Virus record (IMG/VR): IMGVR_UViG_3300006052_000013
Origin: a virus
DNA: 45,764 nt
Reading direction: 5' to 3' (one strand)
Made by a program: the position numbers and the translations under genes. Under the pieces are notes generated by a model, which was not told where the DNA came from, made no database searches, and saw only the letters and a program-made list of their open reading frames with translations. Positions 27,098 to 43,707 of this stretch are shown here, piece by piece (the first letter of the stretch is position 1; each line of letters opens with the position of its first letter).

Positions 27098-27129
27098 ATT
27101 ACCACGGGTTTACCCGTGGCCCTCTGTTA
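27098..27129 (-). repeat. short intercistronic hairpin cassette
   Basis: ttACCACGGGtttaCCCGTGGccctctgtta. Confidence 0.6.
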
Positions 27130-27636
27130 TTCTCCGGTTTGTTCAAAGTGCCGGATACGTTCTTTGGTAATATTGACATACTCGGTAGTCCCCGGGGTGG
27201 CATCCCGAAGTCTTCTTTCAAAAGTTTCTGGCCAGTGACCTCGGCCGTAGTTGCGATAACCCCTTAAAAGAAACAAGCGTGCCGCGGCACTCTTATCTAT
27301 GCCAAGCCATTCCGCGGCGCGGTCGGGGGTATCCGTGTGAAAGATAAAATAAGATACGTCTGTTTCTTCATCTTTAATCGGTTTAACCTGTCCCGTCATT
27401 ACCAGAATATTTCCCGCCAGGCATCCCACCGTATTACAGGGGGGAACATCATCGGCCGTCGGCGAAAATTCTGATAATATTTGAGACACTCTTTTTTTCA
27501 AAACATCGCCTTCTTTGGCCGTTACTCCCCACAAACCCATGTTGAACCGAAGTGGTTCTTTCTCGATGTACTCAATTAACTGCTCGAGTTTCGCCACGGT
27601 TTCCGGGGATGGCTTTTCGTATTGTTGGTTTTCCAA
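27127..27636 (-). CDS. hypothetical protein (169 aa)
   Basis: TTG start with an AAGGAGAGG RBS. Confidence 0.45.
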   Translation of the reverse strand: MENQQYEKPSPETVAKLEQLIEYIEKEPLRFNMGLWGVTAKEGDVLKKRVSQILSEFSPTADDVPPCNTVGCLAGNILVMTGQVKPIKDEETDVSYFIFHTDTPDRAAEWLGIDKSAAARLFLLRGYRNYGRGHWPETFERRLRDATPGTTEYVNITKERIRHFEQTGE

Positions 27637-27651
27637 ATTCCTCTCCTTGAT

Positions 27652-27695
27652 AACGGAAGATATCCGTTACACCGGGTTTCCCCGGTGCCCTCTGG
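27652..27695 (-). repeat. short cassette, double-hairpin variant
   Basis: AACGGAagatatCCGTT + CACCGGGtttCCCCGGTGccctctgg. Confidence 0.5.
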
Positions 27696-27696
27696 T

Positions 27697-28209
27697 TTAT
27701 GCCGCCTTCTTTTTGTTGGCATTCCGGACTTTGACGCGACGTTGCATCTCGGCCGAACGTTCTTCCGGAGACATTTTGTCCCAGTAACTTTTCGCCCCGA
27801 TGGCAACTTTTGATTTTCTTTTGGTTTTCGCCCATCGCAATCGCTGGGCCTGGGCAATCCGGTTCCGTGCCGACTTGGACAGACGACGTTTCAATGGTTT
27901 GTCATCATGTGAACGAACATGAATCGTCGTCGTGCCAGGGGCGATTTCATTCCCTTGGTCGGTTGCTCCCCGCATCTGGGGCAAATGTTGGGTACCGTCC
28001 AATAACTCCCCGCGCGTCTCGGCGAGAAGAAGCGTTCCCACCCAATGGGCAGCGTCGGGCGGAGTGATCGCTCCGCCTGTCTCTGCTCCGAGGGCGTTAA
28101 GCTGCGCTTTGATATCCCGGTAAAGGTAACCGAGCCGGAATGCCGCAGTTTGGAAAATGGAATGACTTTCCTTAGTGCTCCCATACTGTTTTCCTCTCCT
28201 TGGTTTCAT
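27697..28209 (-). CDS. hypothetical basic protein (170 aa)
   Basis: ATG with a GAGGA RBS; K/R-rich C-terminus. Confidence 0.5.
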   Translation of the reverse strand: MKPRRGKQYGSTKESHSIFQTAAFRLGYLYRDIKAQLNALGAETGGAITPPDAAHWVGTLLLAETRGELLDGTQHLPQMRGATDQGNEIAPGTTTIHVRSHDDKPLKRRLSKSARNRIAQAQRLRWAKTKRKSKVAIGAKSYWDKMSPEERSAEMQRRVKVRNANKKKAA

Positions 28210-28223
28210 GTTTTTATCCTCAT

Positions 28224-28271
28224 AACGGACAGTAGTCCGTTACCGTGGGTTTACCCCACGGCCCTCTGTTA
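28224..28271 (-). repeat. short cassette, double-hairpin
   Basis: AACGGACagtaGTCCGTT + accGTGGGtttaCCCCACggccctctgtta. Confidence 0.6.
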
Positions 28272-28676
28272 CGCGAGTTCATTCATTGCACTAGCTTGTT
28301 CAAAATCCGACAACGTTCCCTCGAATGTTGCTCCGCAACTGCACGAAACTTTGTAGTCTAGAGAAAAACCATAGAACATTTTCGTTCCTCTTCCCTTGCC
28401 CTCGCTTTTTGTGGCCGGTTCTAAATCTGAACCATTACCATTGACGGAGAGGTCGTGTTCATCGCCCTCGTGGTCTTCGGGTACATACCCAGGAATATCC
28501 TGAGTTGCGCTGATATTTGCATCTTTCAATTCTTCGCCGCATTCGCCGCATTTCAATATTACTCGAACATCGGCCCGGACCTCGGCCGCGATGAGGTCCA
28601 CTTCCAAATCACCTTCTAACTCAACTTCATGGGGGTCTTCATAGGGAACAAACTTATTGCAACTTGGACAACGCAT
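28269..28676 (-). CDS. acidic Zn-ribbon protein (135 aa)
   Basis: CPSC...CGEC; starts at the M that follows the long leader. Confidence 0.5.
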   Translation of the reverse strand: MRCPSCNKFVPYEDPHEVELEGDLEVDLIAAEVRADVRVILKCGECGEELKDANISATQDIPGYVPEDHEGDEHDLSVNGNGSDLEPATKSEGKGRGTKMFYGFSLDYKVSCSCGATFEGTLSDFEQASAMNELA

Positions 28677-28682
28677 TTTCCT

Positions 28683-28772
28683 CTCCTGATATGGCAACAA
28701 ATAAGCCGTTGGCTTATTTGTTGAGGTTTCCCCTCATTGCCATTACCGGCCCGTGGGCCGGCCCTCTGTTAC
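28683..28772 (-). repeat. long three-helix leader cassette (copy 1)
   Basis: ctcctgatatggcaa-[acaaataagccgttggcttatttgt]-tgaggtttcccctcattgccattacc-[ggcccgtgggccgg]-ccctctg. Confidence 0.65.
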
Positions 28773-28987
28773 TGAATACCCCGCGCCGGTGGTACGTGGT
28801 GTGCGTCCGGACGCAATACCCCCGGCGGAACTTCCATATCGGGCGGCGGCGCACATCGGTTCTGAGATAGAAGCGCCTGTTGCATAATCTCCCAGGCCTT
28901 TTCCTGTCGCCGGGCCAAAGAGAATACATACCATAGGTACAATACTCCCAGTAAAATTAACGCCAAACTTGCCAAACCTTCATTCAT
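28769..28987 (-). CDS. small membrane protein (72 aa)
   Basis: LASLALILLGVLYLWYVF transmembrane segment; internal ATG with a GGAGGGAACAACA RBS. Confidence 0.45.
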   Translation of the reverse strand: MNEGLASLALILLGVLYLWYVFSLARRQEKAWEIMQQALLSQNRCAPPPDMEVPPGVLRPDAHHVPPARGIQ

Positions 28988-28998
28988 TGTTGTTCCCT

Positions 28999-42009: not shown

Positions 42010-42038
42010 CTTACCGCCCGACCGGGCGGCCCTCGTTA
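42010..42038 (-). repeat. short cassette
   Basis: cttaccGCCCGaccgGGCGGccctcgtta. Confidence 0.6.
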
Positions 42039-42239
42039 GTGTTCCAACTCCACCAAACCAACCTCATCATCAACGCAGGTTTCATGACCCTGTTTCCACA
42101 GTTCCTCGGCCAACAATAGAACCTCTCCCCGATTTTGGAAGTTCTTTTTGGTATATTTCACGATCTGCGGAGACAGGCAATCAACATCCGTTGTGAATTT
42201 AATTCGCCCACCTTTTTCCTGTCCTATGTGATATATCAT
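42036..42239 (-). CDS. hypothetical protein (67 aa)
   Basis: Internal ATG with a GAGAGG RBS. Confidence 0.45.
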   Translation of the reverse strand: MIYHIGQEKGGRIKFTTDVDCLSPQIVKYTKKNFQNRGEVLLLAEELWKQGHETCVDDEVGLVELEH

Positions 42240-42334
42240 TGTTCCTCTCTTTTTGAAGTACCGGGCCGCACGCGCTCGGAGTCTCGTCATGGACTACTCA
42301 ACCATGATCTTGTCGTCTTGGGTGAGACCCGGTA

Positions 42335-42363
42335 CTTACCGCCTTCTCAGGCGGCCCTCGTAA
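42335..42363 (-). repeat. short cassette
   Basis: cttaccGCCttctcaGGCGgccctcgtaa. Confidence 0.6.
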
Positions 42364-42637
42364 GGTTCTGGTAAAGTGATTTCAGGTCTTTGCCCCCACC
42401 CAAATCGCGGTAGGGCACGGTATAGTCACCAAACGGTTCACGGGTGAACCGCTTCCGTTCCCACACCTGAAAGTCTTCGGCGACGAACAGGAATTCCAAC
42501 GGATCAGACCGCCGCCGGAGTATCCAGGTATCATCGACGATTCGCAAAATCGGTCTCATATAAATAGACCAACCCTGTTCTTTCAGATCGAGCAACAACT
42601 TGGTGAATTCTTTGCTTTGTTCGTGGTTCTTTTTCAT
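42347..42637 (-). CDS. hypothetical protein (96 aa)
   Basis: Internal ATG with a GGAGAGAAAACA RBS. Confidence 0.45.
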   Translation of the reverse strand: MKKNHEQSKEFTKLLLDLKEQGWSIYMRPILRIVDDTWILRRRSDPLEFLFVAEDFQVWERKRFTREPFGDYTVPYRDLGGGKDLKSLYQNLTRAA

Positions 42638-42653
42638 TGTTTTCTCTCCATAC

Positions 42654-42682
42654 TTACCACCCCGTGGGGTGGCCCTCGTCAA
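42654..42682 (-). repeat. short cassette
   Basis: cttaccACCCCgtgGGGTGgccctcgtca. Confidence 0.6.
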
Positions 42683-42942
42683 CCAATATCGTTATTGAAC
42701 CAGTTAGTAGTGTCCTGGTCTTTTTGGTGAAGTTCAGGAAATGCGTCGACCAGTTTGTCGGCGATGTTTTCGGCGACGTGATGACTCTCACTGGCCACGG
42801 CCGTGTATTCCCGTTCATAATCGGTACTGCCCGGCCCGACGTACTCCCAGGTTCCTTTGTTGGTCTTTTCGAACGTCTGGGCCTCTACTCGTACGGTCGT
42901 GACATAGACGGTGCGTTGTTCTTTTTGCAAAGTTCTTGCCAT
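42679..42942 (-). CDS. hypothetical protein (87 aa)
   Basis: Starts at the M after the long leader. Confidence 0.45.
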   Translation of the reverse strand: MARTLQKEQRTVYVTTVRVEAQTFEKTNKGTWEYVGPGSTDYEREYTAVASESHHVAENIADKLVDAFPELHQKDQDTTNWFNNDIG

Positions 42943-42947
42943 ATTCC

Positions 42948-43036
42948 TCTCCTGGTACAGCAACAAGAGATGTAATCTCTTGTTGGGATTTCCTCCCTTA
43001 ACTGTACTTACCGCGGAGTGATCCGCGGCCCTCGTT
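42948..43036 (-). repeat. long leader cassette (copy 7, variant)
   Basis: ctcctggtacagcaa-[caagagatgtaatctcttgttg]-ggatttcctcccttaactgtacttacc-[gcggagtgatccgc]-ggccctcgttca. Confidence 0.6.
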
Positions 43037-43443
43037 CAGGCAATCTTTTTCATATCCGTGAAGTAAACCTCACGGATACCGTCATGGTCATCCGCATCCC
43101 AGAACTCTTTATCAAGTTCTACGATGAACATTCCCCCACGTTCCGCCTCGACGATCTTGCCGACCTGCCGTGGATTATATTCATCCGCGGACAGTTCGAC
43201 TCGATCACCCTCTTTAAAGCCGCCGTAACTTGGCACGGTGGCCTCAACCGGGGGTGTCTTGGGTTTGGGAACGTACTCTTTCCTCAGCTTCATCGCCGAC
43301 CGAATCCGAACGCCGCGGTTGGTCCGAAGATTGGTTCCATTCCAACCTCCGTAGGAGGAAACGGAATCCAATCGGACGGGAACCAGTTTGTTACTGACTT
43401 TGACGACGTACGTCTTACCAACTTCTACCTCATTCTTTTTCAT
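43036..43443 (-). CDS. hypothetical protein (135 aa)
   Basis: RBS AGGAGAGGAACA. Confidence 0.5.
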   Translation of the reverse strand: MKKNEVEVGKTYVVKVSNKLVPVRLDSVSSYGGWNGTNLRTNRGVRIRSAMKLRKEYVPKPKTPPVEATVPSYGGFKEGDRVELSADEYNPRQVGKIVEAERGGMFIVELDKEFWDADDHDGIREVYFTDMKKIA

Positions 43444-43675
43444 TGTTCCTCTCCTTGAAATCCGAAATCACGCCGCGCGGGGAGGGATGGTTAGTTCCGG
43501 GGTCCAGTTGGCCTGGGCGCGGTTAGTTGGCTGATGTTCCGAACCGGGTGGTTGAAAAGGTGATTAACTAGTACTCACCTTTTGACCATCTCGGCCCACT
43601 TAGGCAACGTTGGCCCTGACGGCGAATGGGAAAGACCAGGATAACTCATACATCCCCGCCCGATGTAATCTCGGA

Positions 43676-43707
43676 CTTACCACCTCAGATGAGGTGGCCC
43701 TCGTTAA
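43676..43707 (-). repeat. short cassette
   Basis: cttaccACCTCagatGAGGTggccctcgttaa. Confidence 0.6.

Follow-up and report, generated by a model that had tools for sequence, protein, structure and literature searches.

Cassettes related to the type-P5 twister ribozyme lie at the cistron ends of a putative early operon in a phage

In the viral DNA stretch IMGVR_UViG_3300006052_000013 (45,764 nucleotides, hereafter the window), some 36 copies of one short cassette lie between successive small genes, and this cassette is homologous to the L1/P1/P2 portion of the type-P5 twister ribozyme (Rfam family RF02684). Each copy consists of (A)C(A)-GAGGG, one hairpin of 6–8 bp and a following UAA. A preliminary description of the window had held that the pattern fits no described element family; the covariance search of Rfam shows that it does. 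As for function, we see about even chances that the cassettes are twister-derived cistron-end elements which still direct the processing or stabilisation of the RNA. All the evidence comes from one genome, plus the analogy with other phages.

The window has a GC content of ~50% and 86 called genes, all of them on the minus strand. About 46 small open reading frames (ORFs) occupy the region of 27.1–44.0 kb, and an ORF-poor leader of ~1.3 kb lies ahead of them. The pattern GAGGG-N(8–30)-GTAAG has 25 exact matches compared to 1.55 expected, and every one of them falls on the minus strand, within 29000–43702; the motif CGAGGGC has 37 matches compared to 5.4 expected. With a covariance model (R1) built from 11 equal-length copies, we found 35 full-length copies at E ≤ 0.22 and one more at E = 0.79 (36634–36670), and all 36 are located on the minus strand between 27095 and 43708 (Table 1). 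The same search gave no convincing copy in positions 1–27000, the replication module; the 10 kb ahead of the leader had none either. The repeat array reported in the preliminary description is real, strand-specific and far above chance, and it numbers ~36 members, not ~30.

GAGGG is present in 35 of the 36 copies, and so is UAA; the longer form of these near-invariant boxes, GGTAAGTAC, is only the modal one. The hairpin between the two boxes is 16–21 nt in total, with a stem of 6–8 bp and a loop of 3–6 nt, and 29 distinct stem sequences occur among the 36 copies. The subtypes that had been said to recur identically are only similar. The 253 stem pairs include no mismatch, 10 G·U pairs and no A·C pair; with such G·U pairs and loops, the hairpin is not the perfect DNA palindrome of 14–24 nt that had been described. 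If both outcomes are taken as equally likely, the 10:0 ratio of G·U to A·C has a two-sided probability of ~0.002, and this asymmetry argues for selection on the sense RNA rather than on duplex DNA or on the antisense strand. Tetraloops close the stem in 26 of the 36 copies, and 13 of these 26 are of the GNRA or UNCG kind, compared to ~5% expected for random tetranucleotides. The cassette fold is that of the sense RNA.

The stems also covary, as had been supposed. All 7 pairs of P1 are 100% paired, and in each of them both partners vary; the score for covariation is 0.81, compared to 0.18 in shuffled alignments (reached by 0/500), and it collapses when the partner strand is slid. Since the copies are paralogous within one genome, these counts show selection for pairing and not independent evolutionary events. 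The dinucleotides that flank the two boxes can pair as well, as AC/GU in 20 copies, CA/UG in 5, CC/GG in 2 and AU/GU in 1. Both flank pairs form in 28/36 copies, compared to a mean of 16.1 when the 3′ dinucleotides are shuffled (0/20000 shuffles reach the observed number); this flank helix was not part of the covariance model.

The cassettes fill nearly every gene junction longer than ~25 nt, and where a junction carries none, the two genes overlap or abut. In 28 of the 36 copies a stop codon lies 1–4 nt before GAGGG, and several upstream ORFs stop inside the cassette (copies 42365, 40373, 36232 and 29034), as had been noticed before. On the other side, 10–279 nt separate UAA from the next start. 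A Shine–Dalgarno (SD) sequence follows directly in 14 copies, starting 3–8 nt after box 2, whereas 21–22 copies are of a long form with a further structured spacer, in which a second helix starts with UAA or immediately behind it and extends almost to the SD. After the last copy (27130) no gene follows. The strict coupling to the next ribosome-binding site that had been proposed does not hold; because the cassette is tied to the upstream stop, its distance to the start is variable and the last copy lacks a downstream gene, the element belongs to the 3′ end of the cistron.

The SAS/ESAS of cluster K mycobacteriophages, to which the cassettes had been likened, are a conserved repeat by many translation starts, with a fixed position relative to the start codon. 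Like SAS/ESAS, the cassettes are next to many translation starts of one phage genome; unlike them, they are fixed relative to the upstream stop, and one copy precedes no gene, so that such a module is weakly supported at best. Two further roles were considered and rejected. GAGGG/UAAG cannot serve as a split or standby SD, the order of the boxes being wrong for anti-SD pairing and a normal SD being always present, and the UAA of box 2 is no back-up stop codon, as it keeps no conserved frame with the stop of the ORF.

An E-value scan of 26.5–45.8 kb against all 4227 Rfam families gave nine matches to one ribozyme family, the type-P5 twister. Each of the nine lies on the minus strand, within 44.6–27.1 kb, and in the Rfam E-value scans no twister match was found elsewhere in the window or upstream. 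The twister consensus reads cGCA-GAGgG-cc[P1]gg-UAA-UGCg-GC-A...-cCG-GUCcCAAGCC-CGg, and its first 34 positions correspond to the cassette: P2′, the first L1 strand (GAGGG), P1, the second L1 strand (U^AA) and P2. The CA...UG class of cassettes agrees base for base with cGCA-GAGgG-cc[hairpin]gg-UAA-UGC. Throughout the array, the GAGGG and N^AA strands of L1 agree with the Rfam consensus, and the helix that adjoins L1, loop-closed in type P5, corresponds to the cassette hairpin. In the twister, L1 carries both catalytic bases. Conversely, in 70 kb of DNA from other phages the sole matches of the cassette-only model R1 (E < 0.1) were four Rfam-validated twisters. Judged from these alignments, the cassettes are the L1/P1/P2 portion of the twister; because they lack the defining P4/L4, we file them as twister-derived and not as twister ribozymes.

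One complete type-P5 twister candidate (44139–44009) is located at the end of the leader, 34 nt before the ATG (43976) of the first gene. It contains P2 (GCA/UGC), both L1 strands (GAGGG and U^AA), an 8-bp P1 (GCGACUGU/ACAGUCGU), the T2 strand GC, a P3 insert and P4/L4 (CCAG-UCCCAAGC-CUGG), and its predicted scissile bond is U44091/A44090. In natural twisters T2 covaries, GC going with AAGC and AC with AAGU (9/9); the candidate obeys this rule with GC/AAGC. Seven long cassettes align end to end with it, including one 13-nt block, UUGCCAUACCA(A/G)G. Compared to the complete twister, they differ by an indel of ~42 nt, to which the 3′ strand of P3 and the entire P4/L4 belong. In copies 33359 and 33838, GC and a CCGG/CCGG hairpin with an unrelated loop of 10–11 nt are retained where P4 would be; in copy 27130, AC and a small CCG-UAAU-CGG hairpin are retained. 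The L2 dinucleotide, AC or GC, is at the expected place in ~15/36 copies, with no partner in cis. P4/L4, whose loop UCCCAAGC forms T1 with GGG of L1, is absent from 35–36 cassettes, and only 44139–44009 has it. In a search of the window, the exact L4 sequence GTCCCAAGCC occurred in the complete twister alone, the leader having it with one mismatch; up- or downstream of the cassettes, the search for an L4 partner in cis gave background matches only.

Complete twisters occupy the same slot in other phages. A twister descriptor scan of IMG/VR gave 56 loci, several of them with same-strand arrays, and in eight loci (L158/L196, L165, L192, L195, L197, L186 and L164) 34 elements exceed the Rfam gathering score, with 38.6–66.2 bits compared to 37.6. 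Example contigs are IMGVR_UViG_3300019487_000339, 3300036797_000094, 3300037524_001274, 3300037486_000364 and 3300037424_001220. These twisters stand directly after a stop codon (often by 0–4 nt) and 13–25 nt before the SD/ATG of a small ORF; they form arrays of one orientation, with one element after nearly every small ORF, and their P1 varies while the loops are constant. The stretches retrieved hold 2–8 copies. Like these twisters, the cassettes of the window sit between stop codon and next SD, in one orientation, after nearly every small ORF. Different from them, they lack an L4: within 110 nt of the GAGGG-hairpin-UAA motif, L4 is found for 72/74 motifs in the 56 twister loci, compared to 1/36 here. 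Compared to type-P5 twisters in general, the cassettes share the L1 strands GAGGG/U^AA beside a C-G-closed P1 and a putative P2 made of the bases just outside L1, whereas in 35–36 of them L2-GC/P4/L4 is missing, P2 has 2 bp and, in many, a helix that pairs UAA takes the place of P4. Scans with the cassette pattern itself gave 18 singletons in IMG/VR and at least 119 singletons among the matches listed for the JGI metagenomes; a stricter cassette-plus-SD pattern had 0 matches in GTDB genomes and IMG/VR.

Intercistronic RNA elements that shape polycistronic phage messages are known. In the early mRNA of T7, RNase III cuts hairpins between the cistrons, and the 3′-end hairpin that is left stabilises the upstream message. 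Like the cassettes, these are hairpins between cistrons of a polycistronic early transcript; unlike the cassettes, they are long imperfect duplexes cut by a host protein, without conserved single-stranded boxes and without relation to a ribozyme. Another parallel is that of clustered hammerhead ribozymes, which flank prophage genes and cut polycistronic RNA in vitro and in vivo (Perreault et al. 2011, PMC3088659). As in the window, these motifs bracket single genes or short gene blocks, and they were proposed to cut long transcripts into gene-length mRNAs (PMC3088659). However, they belong to another ribozyme class and occur as 2–3 complete copies per cluster, whereas the window has a 36-copy array of truncated motifs. 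A processing role has been suggested for bacterial twisters; what small self-cleaving ribozymes, twister included, do in bacteria and phages is described as still largely elusive (PMC6765202).

The best sigma-70-like promoter match of the region lies directly upstream of the leader and is the candidate start of an early transcription unit. At the other end, the terminator scan found one sole strong terminator on the minus strand (27009–26986 in the scan, 26976–27009 in Table 1), in agreement with the preliminary description. A single early transcript of ~18 kb is plausible from these two predictions.

We propose that the cassettes are truncated descendants of type-P5 twisters, which would mark the cistron ends in the sense RNA of this putative transcript. 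The two-base helix (AC/GU, CA/UG or CC/GG) would be a vestigial P2 that closes the internal loop; the loop strands GAGGG and UAA would be the twister L1 with its scissile U^A step, and the variable hairpin would be the twister P1. In 35–36 copies the L2-GC/P4/L4 module would have been lost, and one complete twister would remain just before the first gene. For a complete twister in this slot, the cleavage products expected from established ribozyme chemistry (PMC8782182) would be an upstream cistron that ends in P1 with a 2′,3′-cyclic phosphate and a downstream one that starts with a 5′-OH a few bases before the SD. In the truncated copies, the RNA would be cut at or beside U^AA, the predicted U^A positions being, for instance, 43679/8, 41541/0, 36907/6 and 27101/0; P1 would then cap the 3′ end of the upstream message and, in the 21–22 long forms, the second helix would cap the 5′ end of the downstream message. 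The cutting agent could be residual self-cleavage, an L4 supplied in trans, or a protein.

Such a punctuation role is suggested by three features. The L1 strands, which in the twister carry the scissile step and both catalytic bases, are invariant while all else has diverged; the 2-bp flank helix still covaries; and a cut between the two helices of the long forms would leave both products with terminal hairpins. Among the readings offered in the preliminary description, that of RNA processing or stability stem-loops is the one favoured by the evidence, namely the fold in the sense RNA and the homology to a ribozyme used in the same slot.

Several points weigh against this proposal. The complete twister scores 30.0 bits and stays below the Rfam gathering score of 37.6, owing to two long insertions, a P1 loop of 23 nt and a P3 insert of ~60 nt. 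P2 of the cassettes has only 2 bp, compared to 3–4 bp in the array twisters of other phages. Without P4/L4, the T1 and T2 pseudoknots cannot form in cis, and loose L4 matches near the cassettes are at background level (0.31 vs 0.24). P1 is dispensable for twister catalysis (PMC5408937); the L4-P4/L1-T1 architecture is key for activity, and defects of the pseudoknot or of catalytic residues are not tolerated (PMC5408937, PMC11662667). The second helix of many long forms takes up UAA in its pairing, and twister-type cleavage would then be hindered unless the RNA folds sequentially. The single promoter and the single transcript are predictions from consensus scans. No diverged relative was found, so the covariation is that among paralogous copies of one genome. 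We also considered contig ends as proxies for RNA ends and rejected them: two contigs end in the hairpin of copy 40682, at a stem that recurs in the array, which indicates an assembly break.

The absence of the L4/P4 needed for catalysis would be accommodated by an RNA element that does not cleave, the main rival, which we rate clearly lower than an even chance but take seriously. Half-twisters would have been kept as intercistronic hairpins, insulating against 3′ exonucleases or ribosomal read-through, or as protein operators; in the operator variant, a protein such as an early-gene translational repressor or an endoribonuclease would read the single-stranded GAGGG/UAA at the base of a C-G-closed stem. 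The conservation of GAGGG, UAA and the CC/GG closing pairs, with stems that vary, is what a protein-read site leads one to expect; the SD adjoins the element in 14 copies, and ~36 sites on an early message resemble the regulon of T4 RegA or RegB. However, a plain hairpin leaves the invariant L1 strands and the covarying 2-bp flank helix unexplained, the precomputed Pfam tables list no RNA-binding or RNase domain for the array genes, and after the last copy there is no gene that it could regulate.

Cleavage with L4 supplied in trans brings in the leader. The leader contains many predicted helices, with a minimum free energy of -437 kcal/mol for 1316 nt, and no convincing ORF; in the Rfam scan it had no match besides the twister ones, so it may be an uncharacterised structured RNA. 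The motif CCCAAG occurs three times in it, compared to ~0.3 expected. One of its elements is an orphan P4/L4-like hairpin (44609–44594), which is closed into a separate domain in the predicted fold; another CCCAAGU lies at 44384, and a degenerate twister-like copy lies at 44523–44439. We considered whether the orphan L4 and the degenerate copy together make one permuted (type-P3/type-P1) twister, but on inspection the 3′ strand of L1, P2 and T2 do not fit. As an observation apart, GGGACUCUCCUCC is found in two hairpin loops of the leader, at 44173–44185 and 44105–44117 (both minus strand), one of them being the P1 loop of the complete twister. CUCUCCU in these loops is the reverse complement of AGGAGAG, the core of the SD sequence AGGAGAGGAA, which occurs 15 times on the minus strand in 27.6–44.0 kb and once elsewhere; by this complementarity, the loops may act as anti-SD loops on the translation of early genes.

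The array might be a naturally split twister, in which the 35–36 cassettes would be substrate halves with L1, the scissile bond and the catalytic bases, and the leader RNA would provide the P4/L4 scaffold half in trans. Wherever L4 of a natural twister ends in AAGU, its partner behind P2 is AC (9/9), and the modal cassette UAA-GU-AC fits the orphan leader loop, whereas the complete twister of the window is of the GC/AAGC type. The complete twister at the 3′ end of the leader would free the leader from the mRNA. We regard the split form as unlikely, because it requires a bimolecular contact of only 3+2 bp, for which we know of no precedent in twisters. In a weaker version a phage or host protein could replace L4, and the T2 match between leader and cassettes could be mere ancestry. 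If the split form is true, a single leader RNA could set the timing or the extent of cutting along the entire early transcript.

Also unlikely, in our estimate, is that the cassettes are primarily DNA recombination linkers, short homologies like the PeSLs of T4 and lambdoid boundary sequences, or structured sites like the attC of integrons, that shuffle small ORFs. Some traces are of the kind that such shuffling would leave: ORFs take their last codons and stop from the cassette (42365, 40373, 36232, 29034), a half-copy scar (41591–41577) lies directly upstream of a full copy, the same second hairpin follows copies 40373 and 39988, and the whole array is a string of small ORFs in one orientation. 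Yet the excess of G·U over A·C pairs (10:0) and the enrichment of GNRA and UUCG loops speak for sense RNA; GAGGG and UAAG are not complementary, unlike the R′/R″ boxes of attC; no integrase or tyrosine recombinase is found among the large ORFs of the window; and the homology to the ribozyme accounts for the boxes. The recombination boxes of the preliminary description thus survive as a possible side effect, suggested by the ORF ends and the scar, which leaves the RNA-specific features unexplained; recombination at the repeats may be a by-product. Ahead of cassettes 32519 and 33359 lie one and the same extra hairpin, CUGCGAUU(C/A)UCGCAG, and the block AUAUCUCUGCGAU (32520–32551 and 33360–33390, minus strand), as if a unit that exceeds the cassette in length had been duplicated.

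GC-rich hairpins with stable tetraloops after each stop codon would also suit weak or factor-dependent terminators or attenuators, lacking a U-tract and read through by antitermination. We hold this to be very unlikely: none of the cassettes passes the minus-strand terminator scan, which bears out the earlier remark that they have no U-tract, the operon's own terminator is canonical and has one, and the conserved GAGGG/UAA and the twister homology would be left unexplained.

The promoter reading, for a phage sigma or a hairpin-recognising polymerase such as N4 vRNAP, can point to the two conserved boxes and to the gene of the sigma-70 family that the array contains, and can practically be set aside: the spacing from GAGGG to UAA varies over 6 nt (16–21 nt), where a two-box promoter needs it fixed within ~1 nt, the SD begins 3–8 nt after box 2 in 14 copies and leaves no room for a leader, the pairing and covariation are asymmetric between the strands, the elements precede and include the sigma gene but are absent from the downstream replication module, the expected target of a phage sigma, and no phage RNA polymerase gene was seen among the large ORFs.

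Table 1. Cassettes and other features of the array region. Cassettes are covariance-model matches.
Feature	Position	Strand	Remarks
Candidate promoter	45272..45300	-	best sigma-70-like match, TTTTCA-17-TATAAT; 10/12 consensus matches
Leader	43977..45271	-	ORF-poor, ~1.3 kb; twister remnants, complete twister at its end
Orphan P4/L4-like hairpin	44594..44609	-	CAGG-UCCCAAGU-CCUG, without own L1, inside stem CCACUAC...GUAGUGG; Rfam twister match 22.9 bits
Degenerate twister-like copy	44439..44523	-	CACAGAGGGC, P1 (CUUGCGA/UCGCGAG), AAU..., P4-like stem CCAGUUAGACUGG without L4 sequence; read by eye, no model score
Complete type-P5 twister candidate	44009..44139	-	30.0 bits, E 0.005–0.008, model positions 1–58
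Cassette	43673..43708	-	AC...GU type, then structured spacer of ~230 nt
Cassette	43004..43039	-	AC...GU type, long form, three-way-junction spacer reaching SD
Cassette	42650..42683	-	short form, SD directly after
Cassette	42332..42365	-	long form; upstream ORF stop inside loop
Cassette	42007..42040	-	long form; 12-bp second helix takes in GGUAAG
Half-copy scar	41577..41591	-	ACGAGGGCCGCCUGA, identical to 5′ half of copy 42365; forms end of upstream ORF
Cassette	41535..41572	-	short form
Cassette	41248..41283	-	short form
Cassette	40928..40962	-	short form
Cassette	40647..40682	-	short form, UUCG loop, one G·U pair
Cassette	40338..40373	-	second hairpin GUCCAAAUAUGGAC; ORF stop inside loop
Cassette	39954..39988	-	AU...GU flanks; same second hairpin as copy 40373
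Cassette	39563..39597	-	CA...UG type (nearest twister consensus), long three-way-junction form
Cassette	39023..39060	-	second hairpin pairing UAAG with CUUA
Cassette	37396..37433	-	UUCG loop, unstructured 30-nt spacer
Cassette	36901..36936	-	short form, GAAA loop
Cassette	36634..36670	-	weakest copy (E 0.79); UAA is stop codon of upstream ORF and merges with SD (UAAGGAGG)
Cassette, variant	36196..36232	-	UUA replacing UAA; ORF stop inside loop
Cassette	35882..35915	-	CA...CG flanks; second hairpin
Cassette	35481..35518	-	short form
Cassette	35141..35177	-	short form
Cassette	34862..34899	-	long three-way-junction form
Cassette	34091..34127	-	second helix UAAGGCC.../...GGCCUUG
Cassette, variant	33801..33838	-	GAAGG; then P4-like hairpin CCGG-GGGCACGAAAA-CCGG, non-twister loop
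Cassette	33324..33359	-	then GC and P4-like hairpin CCGG-GGGCACGAAU-CCGG, non-twister loop; Rfam twister match 23.6 bits
Cassette	33026..33061	-	short form
Cassette	32863..32896	-	second hairpin
Cassette	32484..32519	-	long three-way-junction form; extra hairpin upstream; among Rfam twister matches
Cassette	32125..32158	-	long three-way-junction form
Cassette	30920..30957	-	CA...UG type, short form; Rfam twister match 24.7 bits, model positions 3–34
Cassette	30663..30698	-	CA...UG type, long three-way-junction form; among Rfam twister matches
Cassette	30382..30420	-	just upstream of sigma-factor gene
Cassette	28997..29034	-	overlaps end of sigma gene (stop codon in loop); UAAG merges with SD
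Cassette	28739..28772	-	CA...UG type, long three-way-junction form
Cassette	28236..28272	-	CA...CG flanks; second hairpin pairs UAACGGA with UCCGUUA
Cassette	27663..27698	-	CA...CG flanks; second hairpin
Cassette, last	27095..27130	-	CA...UG type, then AC and small P4-like hairpin CCG-UAAU-CGG; hairpins and terminator follow; Rfam twister match 29.7 bits
Intrinsic terminator	26976..27009	-	canonical, closes the unit; 10-bp stem (9 GC pairs), tail CAUAUUUUUC; terminator scan

The large ORFs of the window form a phage-type replication set, with Pol A, a UvrD-like helicase, an AEP primase, an SNF2 helicase, a T4 Rnl1-like RNA ligase, a C5 methylase and the sigma-70-family protein, the last encoded inside the array. 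No close phage was identified: megablast against phages gave no match, and tblastn with the primase gave identities of ≤34%. For the sigma protein no homologue besides itself was found. Nine other contigs of the same phage (L019, L020, L140, L142–L144 and L147–L149) from eight samples (ENA ERZ28007521; Logan SRR5581440, SRR5581441 and SRR5457675; JGI 3300006086, 3300006162, 3300027898 and 3300027911) were aligned, and they are 100% identical to the window across the overlap, up to 21 kb. Such identity across eight samples suggests that they stem from a single site or study, or that the population is very clonal.

A FAD/NAD(P)-binding protein of 520 residues is encoded inside the array (37429–38991, minus strand). 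Apart from the same phage, its homologues have only ~43% identity and come from metagenome-assembled genomes (MAGs) of Patescibacteria; the nearest ones outside the phage have ~40–44% identity and are mostly from Patescibacteria/CPR MAGs (Paceibacterota, Parcubacteria, Kaiserbacteria), which may be a hint of the host or of gene exchange. Unusually for a phage replication module, one protein of 851 residues (18149–20704, minus strand) combines a vault repeat with the shoulder domain of the Major Vault Protein (PF11978, E 1.5e-26). The gene beside the RNA ligase (17694–18080 of contig L019, approximately 22283–22669 of the window, minus strand) encodes an Acb2/Tad1-type hairpin domain, PF24729, a fold familiar from anti-CBASS and anti-Thoeris sponges, and a weak metallophosphatase gene follows closely.

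A 79-nt sequence just downstream of the RNA-ligase gene (22650–22728, plus strand) recurs twice, with 97% and 81% identity, at 5126–5204 and 6533–6611 of contig L141; these places are ~5–6 kb past the right end of the window, and the orientation relative to the operon is opposite. At the window edge (45720–45764) lie three tandem copies of a 14-nt repeat, GGGGCAACCGCGCC (minus strand), upstream of which the assemblies L141, L142 and L143 differ, either as a variable region or as an assembly break point. A sub-threshold Rfam match to the glmS ribozyme (24.6 bits vs 37, E 0.044) at 14546–14724 (minus strand) is inside a coding region and most likely due to chance.

Taken together, the window and the complete-twister arrays elsewhere are consistent with one use, in which a single kind of element ends nearly every small gene of a long phage operon, and one element per gene fits a cistron-by-cistron processing. 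The window is an unusual case of this use: in 35–36 copies the catalytic loop is under evident selection without the module that is held indispensable for catalysis. Either the twister chemistry would be supported in another way, by L4 in trans, a protein or a minimal core, or L1/P1 would have a second, non-cleaving function.

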